The notes: generated from the letters alone by a model not told the origin. 64,000 nucleotides of DNA from an uncultured Clostridia bacterium (GCA_947625765.1 CANQPP010000006.1:8810-72809), one strand, 5' to 3'. Positions 1 to 62,350 are shown, counted from the stretch's first letter. Numbers and translations are program-made.

Positions 1-394
1 ATGATGCAATCCGGCCCATGGTTTCATCCGAAATCATTTCTGAAATATCTCCAAATGCAAATTATACGGTTCAGCAATCACTGCTATTCCTTGCAACGAG
101 GCTATGCTTGAAACCACTAATCGGAGTACTTCCAATTCTAGTTATGACCGTGATCGGTTAATGCGCACCCAAACACCTCAATCCTTCCGACTTGGAAAAT
201 TGCTATGGGCGCATGAAACGGCTCATCAAAAAGGAATCGTCAATTCAGTTGCTTCGTGCACGCTGATGATTGAGTTGGGGGAAACTGTTTTCTTTGCTGC
301 TGGATCTGAAAAGAACGTTAAAATAACAACAGTTGACGATATCGAGATATTTAAAGCCCTTCTAAGTGGGGGAAATACCAACTGGTTTAAGTAA
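1..394 (+). pseudogene. IspD/TarI-family cytidylyltransferase. The 5' end lies outside the window, and there is an apparent frameshift near positions 63-68.
   Basis: Frame 3 from position 3 reads DAIRPMVSSEIISEISPNANY, matching the (H)DAARP motif. Homology then continues in frame 2 as GSAITAIPCNEAMLETTN...RTQTPQSFRL...KITTVDDIEIFKALL, matching the AxPVxDT and TPQxF motifs. Stops at 41-43 (frame 2) and further downstream (frame 3) prevent a single reading frame. Confidence 0.6.
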
Positions 395-409
395 GGGTGG
401 AGGGATTCT

Positions 410-1474: not shown

Positions 1475-2529
1475 TTTTTATGCCAAAGGTGAGCCTGATC
1501 GTGCCGATTTATAAAGTGGAAGCTTACCTTGCCAAATGCCTTGACAGTATTGTAAACCAAACATTAAAGGATCTTCAGATCATTTTGGTGGATGATGGTT
1601 CCCCCGATAATTGCGGTGTGATCTGCGATGAGTACGCCATTCGCGACAACCGCATCACCGTAGTCCATAAGCAGAACCAAGGACTTTCCGCTGCCCGTAA
1701 CGATGGGATTTCCCTTGTGAACAGCGAATATTTTGCCTTTGTGGATTCCGACGACTGGTGCGAGCCAGATATGTGCGAAAAGATGTACGCATGTGCCAAA
1801 GAAAACGACTTGGACATTCTGATGGTCGATCATTTTTGTGAACTTGGTAACAGGACGGTCGTGCAGAAATTTTTACCTGAGAGTTTTGTTACCGAAGACA
1901 AAAAGCGCCTTGATCGAATGACGGAGGTCGTCATCTGCAATCATTTTCCCGACGAGAATTATCCCTGCTCTACAAGTTTTCCGTGGGCTCGCCTATATCA
2001 TTCTCGCCTTCTAGCATACGATGACGTGAGATTCATTCCCACGCTCCGTGCACACGAAGACTCACTATTCAATCTATATGCCTATGCCCACGCAAAAAAA
2101 GTAGGATATATGCCCATCCCGTTTTATCATTACCGCTACGTTGCCTCCTCTATCGTTCATAAGTACAATCCTGATCGTGTGGCTATCGACACAGATATTG
2201 CAAACCAACTTTATACGTTTCAGCAAAAGTACCGTCCAGACCCATCATTTAATCAATCACGCATGTCCAATATCATTTGGCTTTTCTTCCGTTGCAACGA
2301 TCGGTACTTTTTCAACAAAAACAATCCGCAGACCTTTCAGCAAAAGCTAGGTACGGTCAAGCAGGTTCTGAACGATGAACCCTACCATTCAGCGTTTCAG
2401 CACATCAACCCGGTCTATCTAACAACAAAACTGCGGTGTGTTCTGCCCTTCGCCAGGAAAAATCATCCGCTGATCCTCTGGATGTTTTATCTGGTCAATC
2501 GATGGATAACAAGACACAAAAGGGGGTAA
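1471..2529 (+). CDS. Family 2 glycosyltransferase
   Basis: N-terminus VSLIVPIYKVEAYLAKCLDSIVNQT...ILVDDGSPD, plus a DSDD (DxD) motif. The start is either 1471 (ATGA overlap with the upstream stop) or the ATG at 1480 behind AAAGGA. Confidence 0.9.
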   Translation: MIFMPKVSLIVPIYKVEAYLAKCLDSIVNQTLKDLQIILVDDGSPDNCGVICDEYAIRDNRITVVHKQNQGLSAARNDGISLVNSEYFAFVDSDDWCEPDMCEKMYACAKENDLDILMVDHFCELGNRTVVQKFLPESFVTEDKKRLDRMTEVVICNHFPDENYPCSTSFPWARLYHSRLLAYDDVRFIPTLRAHEDSLFNLYAYAHAKKVGYMPIPFYHYRYVASSIVHKYNPDRVAIDTDIANQLYTFQQKYRPDPSFNQSRMSNIIWLFFRCNDRYFFNKNNPQTFQQKLGTVKQVLNDEPYHSAFQHINPVYLTTKLRCVLPFARKNHPLILWMFYLVNRWITRHKRG

Positions 2530-2535
2530 ACACCC

Positions 2536-3822
2536 ATGAAACGCGGAAATGTTTATAAACTTCTAGACCGACCAGCCTTTGATATGCTGTTGCTTTTCCC
2601 CCTTCTACAGCCCCAGTGCTTTGATTACTTTGCAGTGACTGACCGTCTTTTTCTGGTATTTAAGATGCTGGCCGCACTGATAATTGGCTTTCTCTACCTT
2701 TACCATGTAATATGTAATCGAAAAATCTCTCCCATAATGCTGCTGATCATCTTCTTTGTCGGATGGCAGATGATGTCTACGCTGATCATGGCTGGTTCCC
2801 TAATCGAATGGATCAAGAAAAGCGGGCCGCTCGTCGCGTTGTGCATGCTCAGCGATCTTCTGGTCCAACGCGACTGGCGGATACTGGTCAAAAGCCTGTT
2901 TGTTTTGCTCGGGCTTGAGACCGTGATCAATTTCATAACGTATCTCCTATTCCCACAAGGTCTGTATACACAGGCCCCGTACACCATTCCCGGCTGGTTT
3001 ATCTCTCCTGACAACTGGTTCCCGGTAATACTACTCCCGGCGGCATTTTTCGGATTTTTGCTCTATTTGGAAAAACGTACCAAAAAAAGCCGATTCCTTG
3101 CCTTGGCGATGTACGTACTGGTAACCGTGCAATTTGCTTTGACGCGATCTGCGACCTCGCTTCTTGGCTGGGCATTCTTTACACTTTTCACTGCATTGAT
3201 GTTTTTTATCCGTCCAGCGAGATTGGGGCGGCTTGTCAACGGTGCCTCGTTGTCGATTTCCTACATCGTTATTTATGTGGGCATTGTCTTGCTGCGGATG
3301 CAGACCCTTTTGGAGCCCATCATCACAGGCGTTTTCCATAAAAGTGTCAGTTTAACAAATCGTACCTTCATTTGGGATGCTGAAATGGCGTACATTCGGC
3401 AATCCCTTTTCATCGGTCATGGTACGAATTACCACGAAAACGGGTTCTGGTTTAAGCCCGAGCTGTCACGATATTACTGGGGATCACACAACTACATATT
3501 AAATATCGCAAGTATTGGCGGGTTGGTTGCTGTGGCGATATTTATCTGGATCGTAGCCCTTTGCATGTACAAACTATACCGTTGTCGTCGGCATCCCTAT
3601 GCAATTTTAATCTCATCTATGCTGTGGGTCTTTCTTATCATGATGATCATGGAAAACTACCGGACTGATGGCGTCTTCTATATTCTGCTGGTGTTAGGGT
3701 ACTATATTTCCATGATCACCACAACACCGAAGAAGGCTAGCGATTGCTGTTCGTTCGTCCAGTGGAAACATACAATAAAAATTCCATATAATACGCCGAA
3801 TTATGAAGCCGATAAAATCTAA
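2536..3822 (+). CDS. O-antigen polymerase/ligase-like (Wzy-type) polytopic membrane protein
   Basis: 428 aa dominated by hydrophobic segments. It sits between a glycosyltransferase and a flippase in a glycan locus. No sharp catalytic motif was recognised. Confidence 0.6.
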   Translation: MKRGNVYKLLDRPAFDMLLLFPLLQPQCFDYFAVTDRLFLVFKMLAALIIGFLYLYHVICNRKISPIMLLIIFFVGWQMMSTLIMAGSLIEWIKKSGPLVALCMLSDLLVQRDWRILVKSLFVLLGLETVINFITYLLFPQGLYTQAPYTIPGWFISPDNWFPVILLPAAFFGFLLYLEKRTKKSRFLALAMYVLVTVQFALTRSATSLLGWAFFTLFTALMFFIRPARLGRLVNGASLSISYIVIYVGIVLLRMQTLLEPIITGVFHKSVSLTNRTFIWDAEMAYIRQSLFIGHGTNYHENGFWFKPELSRYYWGSHNYILNIASIGGLVAVAIFIWIVALCMYKLYRCRRHPYAILISSMLWVFLIMMIMENYRTDGVFYILLVLGYYISMITTTPKKASDCCSFVQWKHTIKIPYNTPNYEADKI

Positions 3823-3896
3823 ATGTCCTGGAATACATTATTCCCACCGACATTCTGAATGTTGCCCTTCGTAAAGGGGAAGGATCAATATCATTC

Positions 3897-5354
3897 ATGC
3901 CGAAAACGACTTCGCTCTTTTACAATTTCATATTCAATCTTATCAAGACCATCAACAGCATTCTTTTCCCGATCATCAGTTTCACCTATGCTGCCCGCGT
4001 TTTAGGCGTCGATGGGGTGGGACAGGTCAGCTTTTCAAAGTCTTTTGTTTCCTATTTTGTTATGATCGCCATGCTGGGCATGAACTATTACGGGACCAGA
4101 GAAGCGGCAAAGCGCAGGGACAACAATGAGGAACTGAGTCGTTTTTGCATAGAAATGCTGATCATAAACAGTTTCTCGACTGTATTTGCCTATTTGCTGT
4201 TGGCGGTTGGAATGCTGTGTATTCCCACTCTGCAAAGATATGAAACACTTCTCCTGATCTGTAGTATTGGCATCGTACTGCAGGGTATAGGTATGGAGTG
4301 GCTGTACCAGGCGATGGAAGACTACCGGTATATCGCTGTCCGGTCAGCTCTATTCCAGATTGTTGCGCTCATCGCTATGTTCCTTTTTGTGCGAGACGAA
4401 GAGGATGTCATCCCTTATGCGGTGATCACGCTCTTAGCTTCTTCTGGCTCATACATTCTAAACTTCTTTAATGCCCGAAAGTATGTCCATTGGCGCCAAC
4501 AAGCTCAGTACAACATTAAGAAGCACCTAAAGCCGCTACTTTGGCTATTTGCGATGACGGTATCGATCGAACTCTATACTGTATTGGATAGCACGATGCT
4601 GGGTTTCCTAAAAGGAGATACCGCGGTCGGTCTATACACAGCAGCGATCAAGGTGGAACGGCTGATAAACACACTGATCATCTCTGTAGGCGTAGTTCTG
4701 ATTCCGCGCCTTTCTTACTATGCCTCCCACCAGGAGATTGAAAAAATAATGGCGCTCAGCACGAAGGCATATAATTTTGTGTTTCTGCTTTCCGTTCCTG
4801 CGGCCGTTGGCCTTTTTCTCCTTAGTGATGAGATCATTTTACTATTCAGCGGCAGTGCGTTTTTAGCAGCTGGTTTTACCATGCGGCTTCTCACGCCGAT
4901 CGTTCTTTTGATTCCTTTCAGCGTTTTGACAAACCAACAAATCTTTATCCCTATGGGATTTGAAAAATTGATCCTAATTTCTACAGGAGTCGGAGCTATC
5001 ACCAATTTCATCAGCAACTGCGTCCTAATTCCCCTATATGCTGAAAACGGCGCAGCTATCGCAACCGTTTTTGCGGAGACGATCGTGGCGATCGTCTGTT
5101 TTCTAAATGCAAACCATTATTTCCGAATGCGGGACATTTTTAAGACATATGCTCAATACTGGATTGCTGCGCTGCCTATCGTCCCGATCGTCTTGCTCCT
5201 TAAAGCTTCTCATCTGAACTATATTCTGTATCTTGCTCTTGCTGTAGCCTTATCTGCTGTCTGCTATGTTGTTCTTCTGATCCTCATGAAAAACCCTTAT
5301 ATCCGAGAAGCACTCGGTATCGCTAAATCTCAGTTCCTAAGAAAAAGAAATTAG
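3897..5354 (+). CDS. Polysaccharide/oligosaccharide flippase (Wzx, MOP superfamily)
   Basis: 485 aa with about 12-14 hydrophobic helices. The N-terminal pattern LFPIISFTYAARVLGVDGVGQVSF is typical of polysaccharide biosynthesis (Wzx) proteins. Confidence 0.8.
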   Translation: MPKTTSLFYNFIFNLIKTINSILFPIISFTYAARVLGVDGVGQVSFSKSFVSYFVMIAMLGMNYYGTREAAKRRDNNEELSRFCIEMLIINSFSTVFAYLLLAVGMLCIPTLQRYETLLLICSIGIVLQGIGMEWLYQAMEDYRYIAVRSALFQIVALIAMFLFVRDEEDVIPYAVITLLASSGSYILNFFNARKYVHWRQQAQYNIKKHLKPLLWLFAMTVSIELYTVLDSTMLGFLKGDTAVGLYTAAIKVERLINTLIISVGVVLIPRLSYYASHQEIEKIMALSTKAYNFVFLLSVPAAVGLFLLSDEIILLFSGSAFLAAGFTMRLLTPIVLLIPFSVLTNQQIFIPMGFEKLILISTGVGAITNFISNCVLIPLYAENGAAIATVFAETIVAIVCFLNANHYFRMRDIFKTYAQYWIAALPIVPIVLLLKASHLNYILYLALAVALSAVCYVVLLILMKNPYIREALGIAKSQFLRKRN

Positions 5355-5546
5355 TCTGCCCTTTCAAAACAAGTTGGCCTGAATTAATGTTTCTTCTCTC
5401 CACAGTGGTAGATAGAATGCTATATTTAATGATTCGGTGTATCAATACATCATCAGATACCCTTTGAATCACGATCATTTAATCGGTTATTTCGCTACGC
5501 ACCCTAACACGAAATTGGACGTGTCTACAAGAAACGAGGTGCTACT

Positions 5547-6709
5547 TTGGACCTGATAAAAAACATTATTCGTCAACAAGCAGAAAAAATTCTGTCGAAT
5601 CAAAAAGCTGAAAGAAATGCAGAATTTTCATTTTTGCAAGCGGTAGCAATTTTGATGGTGGTACTTAGCCATAACAAAAGTGCCATCGGTCTGTTTGATG
5701 ATTGGTTTTGGTATTCCTCTTTTTACATGCAGCTATTTGTATTTATTTCTGGATATTTCTTTAATTTTGCGGGGGGGGGTATAGAAATTTCATTCTCTAC
5801 AAAGCAAAAAGATTGCTAGTTCCATACTATGGATGGAATCTTATATATGGTTTGGTTATAACCGTTTTGAGGCATTTCCAGATTGTGAAATATGGTGAAT
5901 CGCTGACGCTTTACAACTATCTAATTAAACCGTGGACCTTGGGAGATCAATTTGCATTCAATCGCGCTGCCTGGTTTGTTTTATCACTTTTTCTTGTTCA
6001 AGCAGTTTATGCTGGTCTATTCCTGAGTTTAAGGAAAATTCCAGTTTTTCGAGATCGACTTCTTCTGATTTTACTGATCAGCTTGAATTTCGCAACGGTA
6101 TTTTACTGCGACAATCATTCTGAGACACTTAGCGGTTTTCAATATACTTTCGGAAAACTGTTCTTTCTTTTGCCCTTTTATCATTTTGGTGTGCTGTTTA
6201 AAAAGCACGAAAGAAAGATAAAGTTTCGCCCTATCATTTTCCTTTCTGTGATTTTCACGGCACAGTTCTTCCTTTGGTGTACATACAAAGGCCAAGGTAT
6301 GGGCGTTTGGGAATGCGCTTTTCGACTCGGGAACCCATTTGCCCCATTGTTGATATCGCTTCCGGGGATCTGCTTTTGGTTATGTATTGCAAAACTGCTT
6401 CGCCCCGCATATGAAAACAGTAAGATAGTATGCTATATTGGTAAAAACACTTCAACGATCATGACACATCACCCAATAGCGTTCTTTGCCTGCAATTGTA
6501 TCATTTTGTGCTGTTCTAAGCTCTTCTCTTTGGGAAGCTTCGATACAGAAGCATTTAAAACAAATATATGGTATACCTATCTTCCAGATGGCAATTTTCG
6601 ATTTGCACTCATTTATGTTGTAATAGCGATTGCTGTACCACTGTTAATAAAATACTCAGTTGAGCAAACGACTATATGGATTTCCAGACATATAAAACAA
6701 AGCAGTTGA
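5547..6709 (+). pseudogene. Acyltransferase-3 family O-acyltransferase, split into two ORFs (5547-5819 and 5780/5813-6709) at a G9 tract
   Basis: The upstream ORF has AVAILMVVLSHN and FVFISGYFF (acyltransferase-3 N-terminal motifs). After the G run the homologous reading continues in the other frame as YRNFILYKAKRLLVPYYGWNLIYG, followed by about 10 further hydrophobic segments. Confidence 0.75.
5771..5779. repeat. G9 homopolymer inside the acyltransferase coding sequence
   Basis: Direct read: ttaattttgc-ggggggggg-tatagaa. It is the only G run of this length seen in the window and lies in AT-rich DNA. Confidence 0.95.
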
Positions 6710-6872
6710 GAAGTATATCTTGCTTTGAGGTAGGATGTGGTTTCTCAATGACAGACTCGCGGATTTATATACTCAAACAAAACCCACGATTATCTTTTAT
6801 AAGGATAAGGATTATATAGCGATACATAAACATTGAAATGCTCAAAAATTGGGGGAGCAAATAGCATAAGTT

Positions 6873-6908
6873 TGGCCACCGGTTCTGAATAAAACAGGGC
6901 CGGTGGCC
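6873..6908 (+). terminator. Hairpin at the right edge of the low-GC island
   Basis: ggccaccggttctg-aataaaa-cagggccggtggcc, an imperfect 14-bp stem. It lies 160 bp after the acyltransferase stop, where base composition changes. Confidence 0.5.
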
Positions 6909-7162
6909 TATCTTTACTCTGGCAGATTTTATGGGCGCAGTGAAAACAGTGAATATGTTTGGCTTCGTGCAAACCGTCCCTTCCCCCACAAGGTCTCTAT
7001 CTCCTCTGCCCCTCACATCGATCCTTTTTCTATCTTTTTATACAGAGCGTTTCCCTTGCCCCGCCCCCTCTTTTCTGGTATGATGTGGGAAAAGAAGCCG
7101 TTTTTCTCCTTTTTTCCCTTTCCCTCTTTTCCCCCTTCTCCCCAATAAGGAGCGTGGCAGAA

Positions 7163-30563: not shown

Positions 30564-30662
30564 AAGTCAAAACCTCCTAAGGCGGGGCGTAAATGACCCT
30601 ATAACCCTTTGTATTTTACCACAGGGGAAGCAGAAAGTAAACGCACAAAGCCGTCCTTTCGG

Positions 30663-31136
30663 CTTTTCTTATGAAAAGTCTTTGGGAAAATCCGCCTCGT
30701 TCGGGCCGAAGCGCCCCTTGGGCGGCGGTCCCGGCGCGTCTTTTCCCGCGGCCGCTTTCGTCATTTGAGGAAAGGGAAGCGCGGCGGCGGGCTTTTCTTC
30801 CGAAAATGCCATAGGAAAAACCGCCTCGTTCTGGCCAAAGAGCCCGTTTTCACCTCTCGGTGCCGCTGGAACACCTTGGCCGTTTCCAAAAAGACCGCCC
30901 TGCTGCTGGTCTTTCTTTTGAACTTCTTTGATAAAAACCGTCTCATTCGGGCCGGAGCGCCCCTTGGACGGCGGTCCCGGCGCGTCTTTCCCCACGGCCG
31001 CTTCCGTCATTTGAGGAAAGGGGAGCGCGGCGCGGGCGTTTCTTCTAAGAATGTCTTAAGGAAAACCGCCTCGTTTGGGCTAAAGCGCCCGCTTTCACCG
31101 CTCTCAACGTCTTGCGCGGCGGCTCCGGGCGGCTCT
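30663..31136. repeat. Tandem duplication of about 247 bp containing four related sub-repeats
   Basis: Sub-repeat heads lie at 30663, 30792, 30911 and 31038 (CTTTTCTT-N-GAAAA...GGAAAA-CCGCCTCGTT-GGGCC-AAGCGCC). The roughly 95-nt stretches 30696-30790 and 30943-31037 are nearly identical. Confidence 0.7.
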
Positions 31137-31838
31137 TTACTTGCCTTCCCTCTTGATGGCCTCCGTCATCTGCGCCAGGAACGCGCGGTTGCCGGGCTTG
31201 CCCTTTTCCGGCGGCACCGTGTAGCCGAAGAACAGGTGCAGGGCGGAGAGCTTTCCGTAGCGCCAGGCATGCTCGATTGCGTAGCGGATGTCCCGCTCCA
31301 CGCTTTCCGGGCGCACGCCCTTCTCTCGGGCGATGGGCCCATACACCCGAGCGCGCAGGTCCCGCAGGCGCTCCCCGTCCTGCAAACAGAGGCACAGCGC
31401 CCGCTCGATGTACTCCCTTCCCCGCAGGTGCGTAGAAAAGCCCATCTCCTGCAGGCGCTCGGCCATGCGCCGGGCGGTGGGGCCGTCGATCTGTCTTCTT
31501 CCCACAAGGTCCAAACAGGCGAAGGCCTCCTCCCAGCCTTCGCCCACCAGCGCCCCCGCAAGGGGCAGAGAGCCCCTGTCCATGCCCCTGGGCGCGCACA
31601 GCACCAGAGCGGGCGCGCCGGGCAGGGCCAGCTCGCCCAAGCGGGACAGGACCGCCGCGCCGTCTAAGAGGGGCAGCACCAGCTCACACAGGAGCGCGTC
31701 GGGCCGCTCCCGCCGGGCCTGTTCCAGCAGCTGCCTGCCGTCCAGGCAGCCGCCCAGCACGAAGCAGCCCCGCTCCCGGGCCAGCGCCTCCGCCCTTTGC
31801 AGGCTCTCCTTCCGCGCGCAGCCGATCAGCAGATCCAT
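31137..31838 (-). CDS. spo0A: Spo0A-family transcription factor with a degenerate (pseudo-)receiver domain
   Basis: The C-terminal half matches the Spo0A DNA-binding domain (HLRGREYIERAL...ESVERDIRYAIEHAWRYG...LFFGYTVPPEKGKPGNRAFLAQMTEAI). The N-terminal half aligns to a receiver, but LLCELVLPLLDG replaces L(L/V)LDIIMPxLDG. The acidic pair, the Thr and the Lys are also absent. Confidence 0.85.
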   Translation of the reverse strand: MDLLIGCARKESLQRAEALARERGCFVLGGCLDGRQLLEQARRERPDALLCELVLPLLDGAAVLSRLGELALPGAPALVLCAPRGMDRGSLPLAGALVGEGWEEAFACLDLVGRRQIDGPTARRMAERLQEMGFSTHLRGREYIERALCLCLQDGERLRDLRARVYGPIAREKGVRPESVERDIRYAIEHAWRYGKLSALHLFFGYTVPPEKGKPGNRAFLAQMTEAIKREGK

Positions 31839-31917: not shown

Positions 31918-32046
31918 TTATTGCGCCTCCAGCATCCAGTCGATGAACACGCCGTAGCCGCGCAGCGGGTCGTTGACGAACACGTGCGTCACCGCACCCA
32001 CCAAATACCCGTCCTGTATAATGGGGCTGCCGGACACGGCTGTGTC
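31918..32046 (-). pseudogene. spoIVB: 3'-terminal remnant of the spoIVB (S55 peptidase) gene
   Basis: Hand translation of the minus strand gives [42 protein letters not shown]-stop. This matches the SpoIVB C-terminus around the catalytic serine (GMSGSPII...[14 protein letters not shown]). There is no upstream coding continuation, and it lies 80 bp upstream of spo0A as in canonical synteny. Confidence 0.75.
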
Positions 32047-33604
32047 AATATAGGGACAACAACTTTCCCATCTCGTCCCGGAAGTTCCACTCGATGCGCA
32101 ACTCCCCTTCCTCCCCGATCACGATCCTGCGGATCATCTCGTGGGTCAGCGCCGGCGTCAGCGTTTGGACGGGTCGGCAGCGCGTGTCCGTTTCCGGGGC
32201 GGCCTGTTCCCCTCGCGCCCCCTTTTCCAGCTCCTTTTCCAGCAGTTCCAGTTTGAGCTTCATCGGCTCCGCATCCTTAGTCAGCGCCGCCTTGGCAGCG
32301 GAAAATTCCTCCCGGCTCAACTGCCCGCCCGCGTACTGTTCGTACAGGCGCAGCTTTTCTTCCTCTTTCCGTTCGATCCGCCGCCGGAGGGAGATACATT
32401 CCGCCCGCAGCTTGCCAAGCTCTCCCTTCCCCCGCCCCGCCCGCGGCAGCTCCGCTTCCAACAGCTGCATCTGCGCGTTCAGCGCCCGCAGCACCACCTT
32501 TTTGAGCTTTTCCTCGTCGGCCCGCACGCGGGCGCAGCCGCTGTCCGGGGCGTAGCGGCGGGTGCCGCACAGCCAGTACCGGCTCTGCGGCCTGCCCTTG
32601 GTCAGCCGCTTGCCGCAGCAGCCGCAGACGAGCAGGGAGGTAAACGGTCCCGCCTGCGCCGTCGGTGGAGACTTGCGCTTAGAGCGCACCGCCGCGCGGG
32701 CCCTTGCGAACGTCTCCCGGCTCACGATACCCTCGTGGGTGTTCGGGATGAGCTGCCTCTCCGCCTCCGGGACGGGCCGCAGCCTGCCGCTGCCCACCTT
32801 GCACACGTGCGAGCGGAAGGGCACCGTGTCGCCCGTGTAGGTCCTGTTTTCCAGTATGTTGCGGACGGACTCGTAGTTCCACACCGGCTGCACCCTGTAC
32901 CGACCCCGCACGGCGGCAAGGTACGCGGACGGCGTGGCCGTGCCGCTCTCGTTGAGCCGCCGGGCGATCTGCGTGATCGGCACGCCCTGTTCGGCCCAGG
33001 CGAAAATCTTCCGCACCACGGCGGCCGCGGGCCTGTCCACGACGATGCTGTTCTTCTTTTCCCCCTTCTTGTAGCCGTAGGGCACGGCCCCGAAGGCGTA
33101 TTCCCCGCCCAGCTTCTTTAAGTCCACCGCGCTGCGGATCTTTCTCGAGAGGTCGCGGCTGTACATCTGGTTGAGCAGGTTGCGCACGGCCAGCTCCAGC
33201 CCGCCCGTGCCGCCGTCCAGTGCCCTGGTGTCGAAGCGGTCGTTGACGGAGATGAAGCGCACATTATAAAGGGGAAACACGAGCTCCAGATACCGCCCCG
33301 CCTCTATATAATTGCGGGCAAAGCGCGAAAGGTCGCGCACCACGACCGTCCCCACCTTCCCCGCCTCGACCAGCTGCAGGAGGGACCGCATGCCGGGCCT
33401 GTCCATGCTGGTGCCGGAGGCCCCGTCGTCCACGATCTCCCGGAAGGAGCAGACGTCCAGCCCTTCCTCCTCCAGAAAGCGGCGGATGCAGGCCCGCTGG
33501 GAGGCGATGCTGCAGCTCTCGCCCGCATCGCCGTCCTCTTTTGATAGGCGCAGGTACACGATCCCCATCCGTTCAGTCGGCATGGCTCTCCTCTTCTCCC
33601 GCAT
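32045..33604 (-). CDS. Large serine recombinase (third of three)
   Basis: Resolvase domain ([11 protein letters not shown]...[30 protein letters not shown]). It also has a recombinase domain, a zinc ribbon (CGCCGKRLT...WLCGTRRY) and a coiled coil. The start is uncertain: 33604, 33583 or 33568. Confidence 0.9.
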
Positions 33605-35279
33605 TCAGCGCTTCCAGCTCCCGGAAGGGGTCGCGGCCGCGCAGCACGATGCGGATCGAGCGGTCTTTCCTTACCTCGATCCGCTCCACCAACAGGTCGA
33701 GCAAGCCGCGGTCGAGCCGGGGCAGAAGCCTGTATTCCCGCAGCCGCGCCGCCCATTCCCGCGCTTTTTTGAGCGTCACCTTTTCCGCCTTCATTTTTTC
33801 CTCCGCTTCCCTTTCTTCCCGCTGGGCTTCCGTCAGCTGCGCCTTATATCTTCCCTTCATGTAGATGTACTCGTCCCGGTCGATCACGCCCCGGGCCGCG
33901 TCCGCAAGCAGCCCCTCGAGCCTCGCCTCTATGCGCTCTTTCTTGGCCGCAAGGCCCGCCCGCGCCGTCTCGCCCGCGCGTCTGCGGGCAACCTGTCCGC
34001 GCTCGATCTCCTCAAGCAGGCGGTCAACATCCGCAAACAGGCGCAGCTGCACGTCCAGCTGGCCCTTCACCCGCTCGTGTAGCCTGTCCTGCCGCAGGTA
34101 GTGGCAGGCGCAGGCCGCCCCCTGGCTGCGGCGGTAGGCCGCGCACTCGAAGAAGATGTGGCTCTGCCCTTTGGAGCCCGCCCGCGCGCAGCCCTTGGCC
34201 GCGAGCATCGGCGCGCCGCAGTCCGCGCAGAACACCTTGCCGCGGAACAGTTCGCGGTCCTCCTGCCCGCAGCCGGGCCTCGCCCGGAAGTTTTCCCGTT
34301 TCGCCCGCCGTTCGGCGGCCACGCTCTGCGCCTTCTCGAACAGCTCCTCCGGCACGATGGCCGGGTGCGCCGCCTCGATCACCCGCCATTCGGCTTTTTC
34401 CCTTTGCCTCTTGGGCAGGCCGACACGCTCCCGGCCAAATTTGCCGTGGATGCGCTTTCCCGTGTACACCGGGTCGGAGAGCAGCTTCTGCACGGTCTCC
34501 CGCCGCCACAGCGCCGCCTCGTATTTAGGCGCCTTCGTCAGGCCCCGCAGGAAGCGCAGTCGCCCCGGGCAGGGAACGCCTTCCCCGTTGAGCACGCGCG
34601 AGATCTGGCCATAGCTTGCCCCCTCTGCCCGCATGGCGAACATCCGCAGGACCACCGGCGCGGCCTCCCCGTCCACGCGGTAGCTCGCCTTCTCCGGGTC
34701 GCGCAGGTAGCCGTAGGGCACGCTGCCGGAGGCGGGCAGGAACTCCCCCTTCTCCATCCTCGCCGAGATGCTGGAGCGCACCTTGCGGGAGATGTCCTTC
34801 ACGTAGTGGTCGTTCATCACCATCCTGAGCGGCAGCGTGAGAGCCTGGGCATCCGCGCCCTTTGCGGCGCTGTCGTAGCCGTCGTTGATGCTTATAAAGC
34901 GCACGTTCAGGGCGGGAAAGACCCGCTCCACGAGCCGCGCCGTCCGCGAAAAGTGGCGGCCCAGGCGGGAGACGTCCTTGACCAGCACGCAGCGGATTTG
35001 CCCCGCCCGTATGTCCTCCATCAGCCGCAAAAGATCCGGCCGGTCGTACCGCAGGCCGCTCCAGCCGCTGTCCGTATAGAAGTCATGCAGCTGAAGCTCC
35101 GGGTGCTCCATGAGGTAGGCGCGGGCGATCTTCTTCTGGCTGCCGATGGAGTTCTGTTCCTCATCGTCCCCGTCCTCCACCGAAAGGCGGGCGTACACTG
35201 CCGTCGGGACGGCTTTTTCGGGAAACTCTTTCCAAAACTCCGGCCTTTCCGGCCCCGTTCTCCTGCTCTTTCTCGCCAT
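33573..35279 (-). CDS. Large serine recombinase (second of three)
   Basis: VYARLSVEDGDD...SIGSQ, DSGWSGLRYDRPD, VLVKDVSRLGRH. Zinc ribbon CADCGAPMLAA...FFECAAY and a coiled-coil tail. Its ATG directly abuts the stop of the upstream recombinase. Confidence 0.9.
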   Translation of the reverse strand: MARKSRRTGPERPEFWKEFPEKAVPTAVYARLSVEDGDDEEQNSIGSQKKIARAYLMEHPELQLHDFYTDSGWSGLRYDRPDLLRLMEDIRAGQIRCVLVKDVSRLGRHFSRTARLVERVFPALNVRFISINDGYDSAAKGADAQALTLPLRMVMNDHYVKDISRKVRSSISARMEKGEFLPASGSVPYGYLRDPEKASYRVDGEAAPVVLRMFAMRAEGASYGQISRVLNGEGVPCPGRLRFLRGLTKAPKYEAALWRRETVQKLLSDPVYTGKRIHGKFGRERVGLPKRQREKAEWRVIEAAHPAIVPEELFEKAQSVAAERRAKRENFRARPGCGQEDRELFRGKVFCADCGAPMLAAKGCARAGSKGQSHIFFECAAYRRSQGAACACHYLRQDRLHERVKGQLDVQLRLFADVDRLLEEIERGQVARRRAGETARAGLAAKKERIEARLEGLLADAARGVIDRDEYIYMKGRYKAQLTEAQREEREAEEKMKAEKVTLKKAREWAARLREYRLLPRLDRGLLDLLVERIEVRKDRSIRIVLRGRDPFRELEALNAGEEESHAD

Positions 35280-36914
35280 CTAACCCGCCTCCCCGGCCCG
35301 GATCGTCCGCCTAAGCAGCTCCAGCTCGTCCCTGTAATTGAACTCCACCCGTACGCGCTTGCCCTCATACACATACACCTTGTTGATGAGCGTGGCCACC
35401 GCCTCGCGGCTCAGCTCCCGCAGTCCGCGGAACTTTAGGTACTGTTCCAGAAAGCCGCCCGCGCTGCTTGCGGACAAAAGCGCCTGCCTTTCCTCCTGCA
35501 GTCTGCGCTTTTCCGCCTCCGCCCGCTCGATGCGCGCGCCGTACTTTTGCCGCATCGCCGCGTATTCCTCCCGGTCGATGAGGGCATCTTGCAGGGCCTC
35601 GTACAGCCCCATGCGGAACTCCCTGTCCTTCTCGATCTCCCTTTCCTTTTGTTCCAGCTGCCTGTCCATCCACAGCGCGCGCATCTCATTGAAGTCCTGC
35701 ACGCCCAGCTTTTCGGCCAGCATTTCCGTTTCCGAAACCAGGTCCAGCTGCCCCTGCACAGCATGCAGCACCACCGCCTCCAGCCTGTCCTGGGCAAAGC
35801 TGTGGCTGCTGCAGCCCCTGCCCGCCTTGTGGCCGGAGCAGACGTAATAGTGGAACGTCTTGCCGCCGCGCTTAACGCTCCGCCTGAGCATGGAGCTGCC
35901 GCAGTCCGCGCAGAACAGCACCCCCGCCAGCGGCAGCACCCGCTTTTCCTCCGGCGGCCTGCGCGTATCGCGGGCAAGCAGCTCCTGCACCACGGCAAAC
36001 AGTAGCGGATCGACGATGGCCGGGTGGTTGTTGGGCACGCTGACCCACTGTGCCGGGTCGCGCTCCACCACCGTCTTGATCTTGTAGTTGGGCGTCCCGC
36101 GCCTGCCCTGCACCAAAGTGCCTATGTAGACGGGGTCCTTCAGGATGCGCTCGACCGTCACCGCCGACCAGAGGGGCGTCTCCCGCCTCTGGAAGCCGCT
36201 CTGGTAGCGGAGGGCGTTTGATTTTTTGTACGCAGCGGGCGAGGGGATCCCCCTCTCGTTCAGCCACGCCGCGATGGCGCTCTGGCTGTACCCTTCCAGC
36301 TTCATGGAAAACACGGCCCGCACCACGCCCGCGGCGCCCTCGTCGATCTCCAGCCTGTGCTTGTCCTCCTTGGACTTTTTGTAGCCGTAGCGGGCGAAGG
36401 CGCCTAAGAACTCGCCATTTGCGCGCTGCACGCGGAACTGGCTGCGCAGCTTCTTGGACAGCTCGCGGCAGTAGGATTCGTTCATGATGTTCTTGATGGG
36501 GATGAGCAGCTCGTCCCCGGCGGAACCGCGCTCGCTGTCCACGTCGTCGTTGATGGCGATAAAGCGCACGCCCAGGGACGGGAAGATCATCTCCAGATAC
36601 TTGCCCGTCTCGATGTACTCCCTGCCCAGGCGGGAGAGGTCCTTGACGATCACGCAGTCGATCCGCTTCTCTCTCGCCGCCTCCAGCACAGAACAAAAGC
36701 CGGGACGATCGTAGTTCGTTCCGGTGTAGCCGTCGTCGCAGGCCTCCCCTTCCAGCTCGATCTCCGGGTGCCTTTTGACGTACTCTAAGATCAGCTTGCG
36801 CTGATTTGCGATACTGTCGCTCTCATGCCCCGCGCCCGTCTCCCGGGACAGGCGGTAATACGCCATGGCGCGGTAGGTCTTTTTCCCCTGTTCTCCTGCT
36901 TTGCTCTCTGCCAT
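35280..36914 (-). CDS. Large serine recombinase (first of three)
   Basis: AYYRLSRETG...SIANQ, DDGYTGTNYDRPG, VIVKDLSRLGRE. Zinc ribbon CADCGSSMLRR...YYVCSGH. The start is the ATG at 36914 behind AAGGAGG; the ORF extends to 36971. Confidence 0.9.
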   Translation of the reverse strand: MAESKAGEQGKKTYRAMAYYRLSRETGAGHESDSIANQRKLILEYVKRHPEIELEGEACDDGYTGTNYDRPGFCSVLEAAREKRIDCVIVKDLSRLGREYIETGKYLEMIFPSLGVRFIAINDDVDSERGSAGDELLIPIKNIMNESYCRELSKKLRSQFRVQRANGEFLGAFARYGYKKSKEDKHRLEIDEGAAGVVRAVFSMKLEGYSQSAIAAWLNERGIPSPAAYKKSNALRYQSGFQRRETPLWSAVTVERILKDPVYIGTLVQGRRGTPNYKIKTVVERDPAQWVSVPNNHPAIVDPLLFAVVQELLARDTRRPPEEKRVLPLAGVLFCADCGSSMLRRSVKRGGKTFHYYVCSGHKAGRGCSSHSFAQDRLEAVVLHAVQGQLDLVSETEMLAEKLGVQDFNEMRALWMDRQLEQKEREIEKDREFRMGLYEALQDALIDREEYAAMRQKYGARIERAEAEKRRLQEERQALLSASSAGGFLEQYLKFRGLRELSREAVATLINKVYVYEGKRVRVEFNYRDELELLRRTIRAGEAG

Positions 36915-37044
36915 AAAAGCCAAACCTCCTTGAAATCCAGTTCTATTCTCAAGGGGCTCTGCCTCCGGCATCCGTCCTCATCGACCACATACAAAAAAGT
37001 ATGCCTCCCTGCGGCCTTCCCTGTCAATAACGCAAGACGAATTG

Positions 37045-37290
37045 TCACAAATTCCCAGCGGGCCCGGACAGGCTGCGGGCGTAGGAGAGGAGCCTGTCCT
37101 GCAGCGTGACGGAGGTGTCCGCATAGCCGATCTCCACCACCACGCCGTCGTCCAGGTAGCGGTAGGGGTCGCCGATCTGCCTTATGTAATCCCGCAGCCG
37201 CTCCTCCCGCGGGCGGCTTACATCGATCGAAACGTCCCGTATGTCGCGGAGTTCTGCCCTGTCAAGCGCCCGCGTTCCATCCTTCTCCAT
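37045..37290 (-). CDS. Small hypothetical protein leading the recombinase gene string
   Basis: 81 aa. A strong RBS (GGAAGGAGG) lies 8 nt upstream of the ATG. It has the same orientation as the recombinases and sits 130 bp upstream of the first one. Confidence 0.6.
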   Translation of the reverse strand: MEKDGTRALDRAELRDIRDVSIDVSRPREERLRDYIRQIGDPYRYLDDGVVVEIGYADTSVTLQDRLLSYARSLSGPAGNL

Positions 37291-37366
37291 GTCCCTTTCC
37301 TCCTTCCATTCTCTGGATAGGATGGACGCCTTTCCCTCCGCCTATGCGGGGTACAGGCATGCGAAA

Positions 37367-37402
37367 AGCCGCCGGACCCGTTTTTTTAGGTCCGGCGGCT
37401 TC
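37367..37402 (-). terminator. Rho-independent terminator after the PHP-domain gene
   Basis: aagccgccggacc-loop-ggtccggcggctt, a 13-bp perfect stem with a T-run on the minus strand. Confidence 0.7.
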
Positions 37403-37430: not shown

Positions 37431-38360
37431 TTAGTCCTTCAGGAAGATGGGGTTGCTCCAGGCGCGGCGGCCCTGCTCGTCCACGATGGTCACGCGGATG
37501 TAGTCGAACTCCACGGGCATCTTGAACTCGTGGTGGGTCACCGGCTCGCCCTCGGTGCGCAGTATGCGGCAGGGCCAGCGGCCGTAGCGGAAGGCGATCT
37601 CCTTGATGGGGGAGCACTCCACGTGCGCCACGCCATCCTCCACGTAGAAGTCGTAGATCTCCGGCCCGCAGCTGGAATAGAACGCGCCGCTCTCCAGCGC
37701 CGCCAAAACGGCGTCCACGTTCTTTTCGGCGTTCACCCGCACCCAGCCGTTGCAGTGGTGCGGCCTGTCGTGCCCGTCGTCCACGGCCACGCCCCACCAG
37801 CGCTTGCCCTGCATGAGGATCTCGTCCCAGTAGGCGGCGTTCATGTCCAGGCCGTCCTCCAGCGCGCAGCCGCTGTTCCAGATCTCCATGCCGAAATAGC
37901 CCTCGATGTTCTCAAAGTCGCGGGCGGGGGTCGCGCTCCACTCGGGATGGCAGTAGAAGGTGAGGTTGTTCTTCCGCTTGATCTCGTCGATCAGGGGCTG
38001 GAAGCTCTTCCAGCCTTCGGTCAGCTTCACGGACTCGGGCCGCTCGTCCTGCTCAAAGCCGTTGCCCTTGTCCTTCTCGGGGCCGATGCACACGCTGTGC
38101 AGGCAGTGGATGCCCACGTCCGGGAAGCCGCCGTCCACCTCCATGCCGGGGATGAGCAGCACGCCGGTCTCGGGGGCGTAGTTGACGTAGTTGTAGTTGC
38201 GGTGGTCGGTCAGGGCCAGAAAATCATACCCGTTTTCCGCGTGGTAGCGGATGGTGTCCTCCGGGGACATGCGGCCGTCGGAGCGGGTGGTGTGGCAGTG
38301 CAGGCCGCCCTTGAGCAGCTTGCGGCCCGGTTGCTGGAAGGCCTGTTGGCGGATCAGCAT
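37431..38360 (-). CDS. PHP-domain metal-dependent phosphoesterase family protein
   Basis: GGLHCHTTRSDG (HxH motif), ALTDHRNY, and later His/Asp ligands (CHPEW, DDGHD). Confidence 0.8.
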   Translation of the reverse strand: MLIRQQAFQQPGRKLLKGGLHCHTTRSDGRMSPEDTIRYHAENGYDFLALTDHRNYNYVNYAPETGVLLIPGMEVDGGFPDVGIHCLHSVCIGPEKDKGNGFEQDERPESVKLTEGWKSFQPLIDEIKRKNNLTFYCHPEWSATPARDFENIEGYFGMEIWNSGCALEDGLDMNAAYWDEILMQGKRWWGVAVDDGHDRPHHCNGWVRVNAEKNVDAVLAALESGAFYSSCGPEIYDFYVEDGVAHVECSPIKEIAFRYGRWPCRILRTEGEPVTHHEFKMPVEFDYIRVTIVDEQGRRAWSNPIFLKD

Positions 38361-60089: not shown

Positions 60090-61169
60090 CTATACCTCCC
60101 GCACCGTGCCGTTTTCCACGAAGAAGGCCTTGCCCGTGGGCCAGCCCTTTTCCGCCTCCGTGGCCGTGACGAACGTCTGGGCGGGCAGGGCGCGCTCCAT
60201 CAGGTACTGCCTGCGGCTCTCGTCCAGCTCGCTCATCACGTCGTCCAGCATCAGCACCGGCCAGCTGCCCGTCTCGTCCCGGAGCAGCTGCAGCTGGCTG
60301 AGCTTTAAGGACAGCGCCGCTGTGCGCTGCTGCCCCTGGGAGCCGAAGGCGCGCAGCTCCTTGCCGCCGATCAGCAGCCCCAGGTCGTCCCTGTGGGGCC
60401 CGGCGGTGGTGGTGCACAGGCGCAGATCCTCGCTGCGCTTCTTTTCCAAAAGGCGCAGGGCGGTCTCGGCGTCGTCCGCCTGCAGGTTGGGCCTGTATTC
60501 CAGCTCCAGCAGCTCTGTGCCGCCGGAGATGTCGCTGTGGTTCTCGTGGGCGTACACCTGCAGCTTCTTCACAAAGCCCGCCCGCTCCCGGCAGATGTAG
60601 GCCGCAAGACGGGCCAGCTGCTCGTCCCAGACGGGTAGCGTATCCAAAAGGGAGGGATCGTCCCGCAGGGCACGGAGCAGGTTGTTGCGCTGGCGCAGCA
60701 CGCGGTTGTACTGCTGCAAAGAGTAAAAGTAGCTGGGGTAGGTCTGGGAAAGCTCCATGTCCAGGAAGCGCCGCCGCTCGGCGGGGCCGTCCTTGACGAT
60801 GGAGAGGTGCTCCGGGGCGAACAGCACGCAGTTGAGCCTGCCCATCAGCTCGCCTAAGCGCTGCACGGGCTCACCGTCCAGCAGGATGCGGTGGCGGCCC
60901 TCGCTCAGGAGGTTATAGCGGATGCGCCGCCTGACGCCCGCCCGCTCGCAGTGCAGCTCCACGGCGGCGTGCTCGCAGCCGTAGCGGATCATCTCCCGCT
61001 CCCGGGGCGTGCGGTGGGAGCGGCCCAGGCAGCAAAGAAAGACCGCCTCCAGCAGATTCGTCTTCCCCTGGGCGTTCTGCCCGAAGATCAGATTGATCCC
61101 CGGGCAGGGTTCGAGGGAAGCCTCTTCATAGTTGCGGAAGCGGCTCAATTCCAATTTTGTGATGTTCAT
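60090..61169 (-). CDS. recF: DNA replication/repair protein RecF
   Basis: LSRFRNYEE, Walker A GQNAQGKTNLLEA, and an SMC-type signature (SQGQQRT) with Walker B LMLDDVMSELD. Confidence 0.95.
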   Translation of the reverse strand: MNITKLELSRFRNYEEASLEPCPGINLIFGQNAQGKTNLLEAVFLCCLGRSHRTPREREMIRYGCEHAAVELHCERAGVRRRIRYNLLSEGRHRILLDGEPVQRLGELMGRLNCVLFAPEHLSIVKDGPAERRRFLDMELSQTYPSYFYSLQQYNRVLRQRNNLLRALRDDPSLLDTLPVWDEQLARLAAYICRERAGFVKKLQVYAHENHSDISGGTELLELEYRPNLQADDAETALRLLEKKRSEDLRLCTTTAGPHRDDLGLLIGGKELRAFGSQGQQRTAALSLKLSQLQLLRDETGSWPVLMLDDVMSELDESRRQYLMERALPAQTFVTATEAEKGWPTGKAFFVENGTVREV

Positions 61170-62278
61170 ACACCCTGGAAGGTGCGCACGGGCAGCACCA
61201 GATAGAGGAAGCTGTCCCCCTCCTCGGGCACGATCACGGCCGGGGAGATGGAGGTGTTGAAGCGGAACAGCACCTTCTCCTCCGCCAGGGAGCGGATGGC
61301 GTCGGTGATGTAGTTGACGTTGAAGGAGATGTCGATGTCCTGCCCCTGGGTCACCGCGTCGATCTGCTCGAACACGTCGCCCATCTCGGAGTTGGAGCTG
61401 ATGGAGAGGCTGTCGCCCTTGATGGAGAACTTGAGCAGGTTGTTGCGGCCCTCCTTGGCCATCAGGGAGGCGCGGTCGATGCTCTCGCTCAAGGCGGCGC
61501 GGTCCAGCAGAACGGAGGTCTGGTACTGGGCGGGCAGCAGCTGGCGGTACTTGATGTATTCCCCGTCCATGCGGGAGACCACGATCTTGCAGCCGTCCTT
61601 CTCCATGGAAACGTGCTTCTCCCCCAAGCGCAGGGCCACCTCGTCGTCGCTGTCGCTCAAAATGCGGCCGATCTCCGCCCAGTAGCGGCCGGAGACCACG
61701 CAGGAGATGCTCCCCTCGCAGGGGGCGGCCAGCTGTCCGCGGCGCAGGGCCAGGCGGAAGCCGTCCAGTGCCACCATGGTCGCCTGCTCGCCGGAGACCT
61801 CGAAGAGGCAGCCGGTGAGGATGGGGCGCGTGGCGTCCTGGGCGATGGCAAAGCCGGTCTGGCGGATCATGTCCTTGAGCAGGTTCTGGGAAATATGCAC
61901 CTCCTCGCCGTCGTCCACGGCGGGCAGGCTGGGATAGAGGGATGCGTCCATGCCCTGCAGGGTCGTCTTGATCTTGGGCATGCGGATGGTGGCGGTAAAG
62001 CGGTCGCTGACCTCCACGGAGACCTCGCCCTCGGGCAGCTTGCGCACGATCTCCGGGAACAGGCGGCCGGGGAGCAGCACGCTGCCCTCCTCCTGCACGG
62101 TGCCGGGGATCAGCGCCTCGATGCCTAGGCTCTGGTCGGTGCCCGCCAGGCGGACCCCGCCGGCCCAGGCTTGCAGGAACACGTTCTCGTACATGGGGTT
62201 GGGGCTGCGCTGGGCGACGGCGCGGCTGACGGTCTGCAGCGCCGTGAACAGGTCCTCTCTTTCACAAAGGAAACGCAT
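61166..62278 (-). CDS. dnaN: DNA polymerase III beta sliding clamp
   Basis: MRFLCEREDLFTALQTVSRAV...NPMYENVFL, the typical DnaN N-terminus; about 370 aa. The ATG at 62278 lies 9 nt after GGAGGA; the ORF extends to 62287. Confidence 0.95.
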   Translation of the reverse strand: MRFLCEREDLFTALQTVSRAVAQRSPNPMYENVFLQAWAGGVRLAGTDQSLGIEALIPGTVQEEGSVLLPGRLFPEIVRKLPEGEVSVEVSDRFTATIRMPKIKTTLQGMDASLYPSLPAVDDGEEVHISQNLLKDMIRQTGFAIAQDATRPILTGCLFEVSGEQATMVALDGFRLALRRGQLAAPCEGSISCVVSGRYWAEIGRILSDSDDEVALRLGEKHVSMEKDGCKIVVSRMDGEYIKYRQLLPAQYQTSVLLDRAALSESIDRASLMAKEGRNNLLKFSIKGDSLSISSNSEMGDVFEQIDAVTQGQDIDISFNVNYITDAIRSLAEEKVLFRFNTSISPAVIVPEEGDSFLYLVLPVRTFQGV

Positions 62279-62350
62279 GGGTGCCATTCCTCCTTATACT
62301 CATAAACTCTCTGTCGTGCGGATGTTTCTATATTATTAAGTGATGGGGCT

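Follow-up and report, generated by a model that had tools for sequence, protein, structure and literature searches.

A large serine recombinase (LSR) element has very probably integrated site-specifically into the sporulation gene spoIVB of an uncultured Clostridia bacterium and left the gene split. In the 64,000-nucleotide stretch of its DNA analyzed here (the window), the last 38 codons of spoIVB lie between spo0A and a reduced element, and this boundary reads as an attR junction composed of an element arm, a crossover and the spoIVB 3' half. The evidence consists of the junction and its position, the conservation of this arrangement across a family of elements, the intact sites of relatives, the absence of the 5' part, the reproducible boundaries, and intact recombinase genes that are under selection.

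The window retains only the 3' end of spoIVB

The features around the junction are:

31137..31838, minus strand: spo0A-like gene, native downstream neighbor of spoIVB (Spo0A_C, E=9.5e-24)
31918..32034, minus strand: spoIVB 3' fragment (B' arm of the split attB), 38 codons plus the stop codon TAA at 31920..31918
32035..32036, minus strand: putative crossover dinucleotide TG, bases 2 and 3 of the Met codon in GM/SGSP
32037..32062, minus strand: element-derived arm (P arm), TTGTTGTCCCTATATTGACACAGCCG, overlapping the last codons and the stop of LSR-C

Translated from the minus strand, 32046..31918 matches Pfam Peptidase_S55 over positions 175-210 of 210 (E=3.7e-18, 66.8 bits) and the SpoIVB equivalog model of NCBIfam, TIGR02860 (spore_IV_B), over positions 361-397 of 402 (E=5.4e-19). 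The original prediction had read this 42-aa translation as the C-terminus of SpoIVB starting at the catalytic-serine motif and had named a failed SpoIVB profile search as one possible refutation; both profiles match. The catalytic serine is the first codon of the fragment (TCC at 32034..32032). The fragment is 77.5% identical to the last 40 amino acids of the closest relative's intact SpoIVB, and its 38 codons are free of frameshifts and stops and keep every conserved residue. The spo0A-like gene, which is followed downstream by pepP and then efp, anchors the fragment as the chromosomal (B') side of the junction.

After the LSR-C stop codon (TGA, 32047..32045), the minus strand reads CACAGCC GTG TCC GGC AGC CCC ATT ATA CAG and continues to the TAA at 31920..31918. 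Three relatives (L087, L136 and L091, the last a Christensenellaceae genome) carry an intact spoIVB near spo0A. The order spoIVB-spo0A-pepP is found in L087 and L136, with one gene between spoIVB and spo0A in L136, and the two genes are directly adjacent in L091; L087 shares 58% identity with the window in Spo0A and 77% in PepP. At the site of the break the relatives read GGC ATC GTG CAG GGC ATG TCC GGC AGC CCC, and the window reads ...ACA GCC GTG TCC GGC AGC CCC. Set side by side, intact L087 is GGCATCGTGCAGGGC ATG TCCGGCAGCCCCATC and the window is TTGACACAGCC GTG TCCGGCAGCCCCATT, so that the Met-codon position before the catalytic serine is ATG in the intact genes and GTG in the window. The first bases common to the window junction and the intact attB of all three relatives are TG (32036..32035), and across all aligned attR junctions TG is invariant and the base preceding it variable. 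Because identity between window and attB starts at TG and because TG is invariant in the junctions, we propose it as the crossover, in which case strand exchange would take place within the Met codon. The break falls, as had been noted originally, at the stop of the third LSR gene: the stop codon lies 9 nt from the crossover, homology breaks 9 bases past the TGA, and identity with the intact relatives runs from 32036.

The rest of the gene, its 5' nine-tenths, had been described as missing from the window. In a tblastn search, five full-length SpoIVB proteins (two from unrelated contigs and three from lineage relatives) produced a single match, at 32040..31921, so that no part of the 64 kb contains the 5' 386 codons.

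Three tandem recombinase genes adjoin the fragment

The element in the window is 5.3 kb long and consists of a DUF6870 gene and three tandem, co-oriented LSR genes:

32045..33604, minus strand: LSR-C, 519 aa, nearest the attachment site (Resolvase, Recombinase and Zn_ribbon_recom domains)
33573..35279, minus strand: LSR-B, 568 aa, in the middle (Pfam domains)
35280..36971, minus strand: LSR-A, ORF of 563 aa (Pfam domains)
36998..37027, minus strand: sigma-70-like promoter match (TTGACA, 18 nt, CATACT) from a consensus scan, between DUF6870 and LSR-A; weak evidence
37045..37290, minus strand: DUF6870 protein, 81 aa, conserved first gene of the module (Pfam PF21757, E=6e-25)

Each of the three recombinases carries PF00239, PF07508 and PF13408 over nearly the full profiles. 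Their ORFs are contiguous or overlapping (36971..35280, 35279..33573 and 33604..32045), and the likely start of LSR-A is the ATG at 36914, which yields a protein of 544 aa, as called in the related contig L131. The sigma-70-like match is the sole one in 5.8 kb, where 0.7 would be expected by chance. A repeat scan of 31.7-37.5 kb returned only the paralogy among the three recombinase genes. The arm plus the crossover (32062..32035) reads TTGTTGTCCCTATATTGACACAGCCGTG, and a motif search found this motif to be unique in the 64 kb.

DUF6870 lies upstream of LSR-A wherever upstream sequence existed, and its position makes it a candidate directionality factor. Its single-sequence AlphaFold2 model had a pLDDT of 48, a profile search of the PDB returned nothing below E=0.7, and the literature searched contained no mention of it.

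Comparison of the window with L131 gave a dN/dS of 0.19 for LSR-A (52 synonymous and 35 non-synonymous differences) and of 0.28 for the first 256 codons of LSR-B; the comparison genes mtaB and PHP gave 0.11 and 0.06, respectively. All three recombinase genes are full length, and the strains compared for dN/dS differ by ~4%. Because dN/dS is low between strains that share the arrangement, the recombinases are under purifying selection in their present arrangement.

Both boundaries recur in other assembly records

The other end of the module abuts the core chromosome:

37291..37365, no strand: left boundary zone, ~70 bp, from the DUF6870 start to the terminator hairpin of the PHP gene (37366..37402)
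37431..38360, minus strand: PHP-domain protein gene, first core gene beside the module (Pfam PHP)

Direct reading and a motif search showed the boundary zone to be free of element cargo, of a second arm motif and of sequence from the 5' part of spoIVB. Beyond 37.4 kb, the rest of the window carries, all on the same strand, PHP, HIT, mtaB, rsmE, rlmH, sbcC/D, mscL, dnaJ, dnaK, grpE, recF, dnaN and dnaA, in keeping with the original description of this region as housekeeping DNA. The core chromosome thus extends for at least 26 kb beyond the boundary zone, up to dnaA, which places the attachment junction ~30 kb from the replication-origin region. The window does not hold one contiguous element flanked by the two halves of spoIVB.

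A metagenome assembly whose gene halves lie on different contigs might have misjoined the recombinase genes to spoIVB and spo0A, or to the PHP gene, but contigs from other assembly records contain both boundaries. One of them, the short L001 from a separate ENA record, runs across the spoIVB junction from LSR-C through the fragment into spo0A and is 99.8% identical to the window. At the left boundary, four contigs from other samples (L131 and L132, Logan contigs from two DDBJ runs; L133 and L135 from ENA) span PHP, DUF6870 and LSR-A at 94.6-99.9%, and L107 extends as far as the edge of the PHP terminator; identity to the window across these five ranges from 92 to 99.9%. The species occurs in runs DRR855143 and DRR855141 and in the ENA assemblies ERZ27249481, ERZ27248994, ERZ27249610, ERZ27249483 and ERZ27249348. 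L131 (7.4 kb) is colinear with the window from the MATE gene through rsmE, mtaB, HIT, PHP, DUF6870 and LSR-A into LSR-B, at 96.4% nucleotide identity. With the same type of junction present in dozens of unrelated contigs (see below), a chimera is extremely improbable, and the arrangement of module and core is common to strains that differ by up to about 5%.

In the three relatives with an intact gene, the upstream neighbor of spoIVB is a MATE gene, an rluA-like gene or DUF5700, and never PHP. A simple local deletion from such an ancestor therefore does not give the gene order of the window, which implies a larger rearrangement. We also considered the MATE gene at 41.0-42.4 kb as a mark of a local inversion and dropped it: it shares 38% identity with the spoIVB-adjacent MATE gene of L087, compared with 77% for PepP, and is probably a paralogue.

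A candidate for the missing 5' half

Residues 1-388 of SpoIVB from the closest relative served as the query for a search of the protein database. Outside that relative's own lineage the best match, P0136, is encoded on a 53,873-bp NCBI contig and shows 75% identity. It comprises SpoIVB residues 1-387, ending ...GGIVQGM: the protein follows SpoIVB up to ...LLEKTGGIVQGM, continues with WVSYNRDNKGRPGISGASGVRPFFIGHKMRGTFP and stops. Among the best 120 matches, P0136 is the only one in which SpoIVB homology ends at the break codon and gives way to unrelated sequence.

The reciprocal junction in P0136 was read at the protein level only. Its tail, WVSYNRDNK..., is encodable by TGG GTG TCA TAC AAC AGG GAC AAC AAA and back-translates to GTGTCA..AGGGACAACAA, the inverse of the window arm, whose reverse complement is GTGTCAATATAGGGACAACAA; the tail is encoded nowhere in the window. 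Two further loci bear on the geometry of the site. In L063, the arm beside LSR-C runs into a spoIVB 5' half in reverse complement, giving ...IVQG-L-GVSYNKDNQ when read in the direction of spoIVB, and L020 contains a complete palindromic site, TTGTTGTCCCAAATACAACAC ... GTGTGTTATAATTGGGACAACA. The arms of the attachment site thus appear to be imperfect inverted repeats around a central dinucleotide, putatively TG. Neither P0136 nor L063 continues into SGSP, and therefore the gene is truly split in the family with three recombinases, its 5' product lacking the catalytic serine.

The missing half is probably P0136, encoded in the same genome as the window. This assignment follows from the identity ranking, from the restriction of both contigs to NCBI, where each is a singleton, and from the unpartnered Spo0A of the window. 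Among the database matches, P0136 is the SpoIVB closest to L087 and the window's Spo0A is the Spo0A closest to L087; of the four Spo0As of the lineage, only that of the window is without a partner SpoIVB. A Spo0A-based scan of genome contigs matched only actinobacterial and acidobacterial response regulators. Of the two fates originally considered for the 5' part, a location far away is now favored, a 5' half being present on another contig that probably belongs to the same genome, and deletion is disfavored. The rejoined protein is predicted to read ...TGGIVQGM followed directly by the fragment, with TGTCCGGCAGCCCCATTATACAGGAC on the 3' DNA side and an attB around GGCATCGTGCAGGGCATGTCCGGCAGCCCCATT.

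The module and its breakpoint define an element family

With LSR-C as the query, metagenomic and viral contigs yielded 56 loci. The order DUF6870, LSR-A, LSR-B, LSR-C, arm, spoIVB fragment occurs in more than 30 unrelated metagenomic or viral contigs (loci with module and fragment: L011-L037, L061-L066 and L079-L085), and it is near-universal where LSR-C is 41-59% identical and downstream sequence is present. LSR-C relatives in this range of identity are always followed by the spoIVB fragment, and the fragment always begins at SGSP, at residue ~286/300 of the query SpoIVBs. The recurrence of the same trio, arm and breakpoint in these unrelated contigs upholds the original view of a site-specific integration junction. 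More distant recombinase trios (26-40% identity) are without a spoIVB fragment; the preference for spoIVB as a target therefore belongs to one clade. Gut and other metagenomes commonly contain the trio family.

Directly 5' of the fragment, about 30 loci carry an arm motif of ~25 nt, TGTTGTCCYT..TGACAC.., in flanks that are otherwise unalignable. Aligned, the arm consists of TGTTGTCC(C/T)T, a few bases, TGACAC, a few bases, and (G/A/C)TG. The arm is also visible in translation: among the best 120 short ORFs in the protein database that match the fragment, 36 have it directly before SGSP, as CCP(I/L)LT(S/T)xV or CWSYIDTLV.

Upstream of DUF6870, relatives carry cargo that includes a primase-like DUF3854 protein, a ParM-like partition protein, PIN and MazF toxins, regulators, a YobI-type ATPase, a RecD2-like helicase, a YqaJ exonuclease, a methylase and SSB, and in one relative the trio element exceeds 35 kb. 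No conjugation module is present in the window or in ~25 kb of cargo of the viral contig UViG_2563367179_000007. The 36.9 kb of that contig ended without a spoIVB 5' part, and none of the contigs searched contained a whole trio element with its two ends. A DNA pattern for the left junction (the arm plus the reverse of ..QGM) had no match in the loci examined; it matched 23 viral contigs, none encoding SpoIVB, which we attribute to chance. Phage-database records carrying the trio (MT836038.1) or spoIVB fragments contained no circular attP form; they are linear and unannotated, each with one junction or with an uninterrupted spoIVB-spo0A.

A second type of element uses the same site and spares the gene

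Splitting of spoIVB is not universal at this site, as a family represented by L002 and L003 preserves the gene. L002 contains a full-length spoIVB, a single recombinase, five cargo genes, a similar arm and a displaced spoIVB fragment. L003 is a remnant, with only a 192-aa ORF between the intact spoIVB and the displaced fragment. Like the window, these single-recombinase elements break before SGSP and have a homologous arm motif; they differ in having the recombinase at the other end of the element and in keeping the gene intact. It stays intact because the element brings its own copy of the spoIVB 3' end. The copies within L002 and L003 are 79% and 93% identical at the DNA level, and this surrogate 3' end is absent from the trio family (P0136 and L063). 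LSR-B is the closest relative of the single recombinase, at 42% identity and 329 bits to that of L002, as against only 26-29% for LSR-A and LSR-C. In L080 a trio element and a single-recombinase element lie in tandem. Judged from these sequences, the spoIVB site is a hotspot that at least two types of element use, with opposite effects on the host.

The existence of this second family suggests a less consequential reading of the window, in which the element supplied a spoIVB 3' end of its own, the other junction has an intact gene and the fragment is the original tail, displaced. L002 and L003 display precisely such an arrangement, down to the similar arm. We nevertheless consider it very unlikely here, because both left-type junctions of the trio family lack SGSP (...GGIVQGM-WVSYNRDNK... 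in P0136 and ...IVQGL-GVSYNKDNQ in L063) and because the window contains no second spoIVB segment.

The element is reduced, and its recombinases are maintained

All of the cargo found in relatives is gone from the window. A host that had abandoned sporulation might have lost it in a later deletion that also took the 5' nine-tenths of spoIVB, and P0136 would then come from a related organism with a normal element. Such decay would explain why no 5' part is found within 64 kb. It would also fit the Spo0A-like protein of the window, in which Glu replaces the phospho-accepting Asp that relatives keep, and decayed remnants at the spoIVB site are known from three other loci (L003, L031 and L033). 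Yet the three recombinases are full length and under constraint across strains ~4% apart, the 38-codon fragment is undamaged, and a simple deletion does not produce the position of the PHP gene. P0136, moreover, is an open 5' half of 387 codons that ends at the same break codon and is the best match to the closest relative's SpoIVB. Taken together, we regard an inactive relic as unlikely and favor a split attachment site beside a reduced element.

On the favored reading, an LSR of the module would bind the palindromic site of the element and the spoIVB sequence around GGIVQGM/SGSPI and exchange strands at TG. The acting enzyme could be LSR-B, judging by its homology with the single-recombinase elements, or LSR-C, judging by its position. 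Integration would join the 5' 387 codons to one arm, one residue short of the catalytic serine, and the 3' 38 codons to the other arm, beside the recombinase genes, leaving them next to spo0A; the other half of spoIVB, with the reciprocal junction, would be the one on the different contig. Split in this way, SpoIVB would be inactive unless the two junctions recombine. An LSR alone integrates, and the reverse reaction requires a directionality factor (PMC5595907). Because of this, rejoining would need such a factor in addition to the recombinase. The two halves may still be rejoinable; the original comparison with skin and SPbeta would imply excision during sporulation.

The cell type in which spoIVB is needed constrains how this could occur. 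SpoIVB is a forespore-expressed protease, and the skin element is excised from sigK in the mother cell, so that the spores keep the element (10.1101/2022.02.25.481979). The targets sigK, gerE and spsM all act in the mother cell, a property that spoIVB does not share. In the well-studied cases of sigK and gerE the cell that uses the gene dies, and excision there leaves the element in the genome of the spore. Since spoIVB is forespore-expressed, the logic of mother-cell excision would remove the element from the germ line. Inversion would solve this problem, because it loses no DNA. It is conceivable, though quite doubtful, that the module now serves, in domesticated form, as a switch in the chromosome that turns a forespore gene on and off reversibly, its junctions lying far apart and flanking the replication-origin region. 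A recombinase and a directionality factor (perhaps DUF6870) would then rejoin spoIVB in the forespore through a large inversion (or excision), and the recombinase alone would split the gene again after germination. The selected and intact recombinases, the intact halves, the loss of other cargo and the conservation of the arrangement across strains are consistent with such a switch.

Discussion

SpoIVB is a signalling protease that is nearly universal in spore-formers. A family of elements with three recombinases splits its gene, recurrently and precisely, one codon before the catalytic serine. If this is true, carriers either cannot finish sporulation while they hold the element or use a different, reversible logic of rejoining. 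Should sporulation be blocked, such elements might be one way, so far unrecognized, in which host-associated Firmicutes lose sporulation. The two families that use the same site with opposite effects on the gene would offer a natural comparison. With their conserved arms and defined target, the three new recombinases and their candidate partner would also be potential tools for genome engineering. In the species of the window, a stripped-down module is kept under selection beside the replication-origin region, which makes the question of domestication testable.

Comparison with known systems

Sporulation genes that are split and rebuilt by serine recombinases include sigK (skin), spsM (SPbeta) and gerE (gin), and cotJC and spoIIID are also reported to be split. 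In the literature searched, mostly without subscription journals, we found no report of spoIVB as an attachment site, an integrase target or the host of an intervening element, in line with the initial impression that it was not a described target. Splitting of genes by serine recombinases was already known; what appears to be new here, against the literature searched, is the forespore gene spoIVB as the target.

In Bacillus subtilis, skin in sigK (SpoIVCA) and SPbeta in spsM (SprA/SprB) each split a sporulation gene and carry an LSR gene at their edge, as does the element in the window. There, the gene is rebuilt only through recombination between the left and right junctions, and the same would hold for the split spoIVB. 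Skin and SPbeta use a single recombinase, whereas the window has three.

XisF of the fdxN element in Anabaena heterocysts, a developmentally regulated LSR that rebuilds a split gene, is the top NCBIfam match for LSR-A and LSR-C and the second for LSR-B. It is only a distant relative, because the scores of 73-96 bits are far below the 375-bit equivalog cut-off, and its phylum, its target and the type of cell are all different.

Integrative conjugative elements of Streptococcus are described as carrying triplets of tandem serine integrases, in one orientation and at one end of the element (Ambroset et al. 2016, PMC4701971). These elements integrate site-specifically into mutT, traG and hsdM and disrupt them, generate direct repeats of 2-8 bp, and have paralogues that cluster by their position in the trio. 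To this extent they resemble the window, with three tandem, co-oriented LSRs at the end of an element that is integrated within a gene. They differ in their targets and in their conjugation modules, and a DUF6870 partner goes unmentioned in the passages of PMC4701971 consulted.

The nearest analogue is gin, which in Bacillus cereus ATCC 10987 splits gerE and encodes the integrase GirC, the 42-aa directionality factor GirX, and GirA/GirB (Abe et al. 2017, PMC5595907). In gin, girAB form an operon with girC at a distance, and there is no tandem trio, in contrast to the single DUF6870-headed operon of the window. The whole 28.6-kb gin element lies between the halves of gerE, whereas the window keeps only the module beside the 3' half, and gerE is a mother-cell target, whereas spoIVB belongs to the forespore. 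Gin pairs an LSR with a small directionality factor, for which DUF6870 is a candidate counterpart by position only. Like the element in the window, gin is not a prophage, interrupts a sporulation gene within its coding region and encodes three serine recombinases.

Additional elements and arm sites at the spoIVB locus

The spoIVB site also hosts other arrangements in the metagenomic and viral contigs that we compared with the window, two of which involve further inserted DNA:

L080, 6575-7871: trio element in tandem with a single-recombinase element
L003, 9226-10000: mini-insert of ~0.8 kb, flanked by an intact spoIVB on one side and by a displaced, arm-bearing fragment on the other

In L080, a recombinase gene like that of L002, the single-recombinase element at the same site, comes directly after the spoIVB fragment that follows the trio. 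The L003 mini-insert, which was found in five JGI samples, has a sole ORF of 192 amino acids and of no assigned family.

Extra or aberrant copies of the arm, the conserved element-side motif, occur in three trio loci:

L020 and L022, 11799-11940: complete palindromic attP-like site and an additional half-site, between LSR-C and the spoIVB junction
L015, 4832-4900: trio-type arm fused to non-spoIVB DNA, TTGACACAACCGTG running directly into CGGGGAACTCC

The sites in L020 and L022 may serve the other recombinases of the trio or may be scars of successive elements, and the L015 fusion could represent a secondary site or a rearrangement.

Genomic surroundings of the junction

Four further features lie in the window:

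1-7000: low-GC island of polysaccharide biosynthesis genes
30658-31103: dispersed direct repeats in the spo0A-pepP intergenic region
31137-31838, minus strand: spo0A-like gene with a degenerate receiver domain
60090-63697, minus strand: dnaA, dnaN and recF

Throughout the lineage, the receiver domain of the Spo0A-like protein lacks the acidic DD pocket and ~30 residues. Only in the window's protein is the phospho-accepting aspartate also replaced by glutamate (LLCELV, versus LLCDL in L087, L136 and L091, relatives with an intact spoIVB), and in profile searches this protein scores below the cut-offs of Response_reg and TIGR02875. The adjoining intergenic repeats comprise a 117-nt unit in two copies (87% identical, spaced 246 nt) and a 72-nt unit in three copies; a 169-nt stretch related to them forms a second alignment in L001, the near-identical contig from a separate assembly.

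The presence of dnaA, dnaN and recF places the replication origin region merely ~30 kb from the attachment junction, and the cumulative GC skew of the window levels off from ~50 kb on. At the window's start, the island encodes an epimerase, a family-2 glycosyltransferase, a Wzy-type polymerase, a flippase and an acyltransferase; its GC content is 39-45%, compared with 62-66% in the rest of the window, and it was probably acquired horizontally.

Related modules and possible spread

Among the database matches, P0008, P0023, P0056, P0060, P0068, P0107 and P0110 are short ORFs that start exactly at the methionine preceding SGSP, the catalytic-serine motif. Their contigs range from 16 kb to 181 kb. 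Some of the ORFs are of Bacillaceae type, for example one that comes from Geobacillus sp. BCO2. These ORFs may mark the same split of spoIVB in Bacilli. Related modules of DUF6870 and a recombinase trio occur in L093-L099, where the spoIVB fragment is absent. These sister clades, whose LSR-A is 38-41% identical, presumably target genes other than spoIVB, and their cargo (DUF3854, methylase) resembles that of the spoIVB trio elements.
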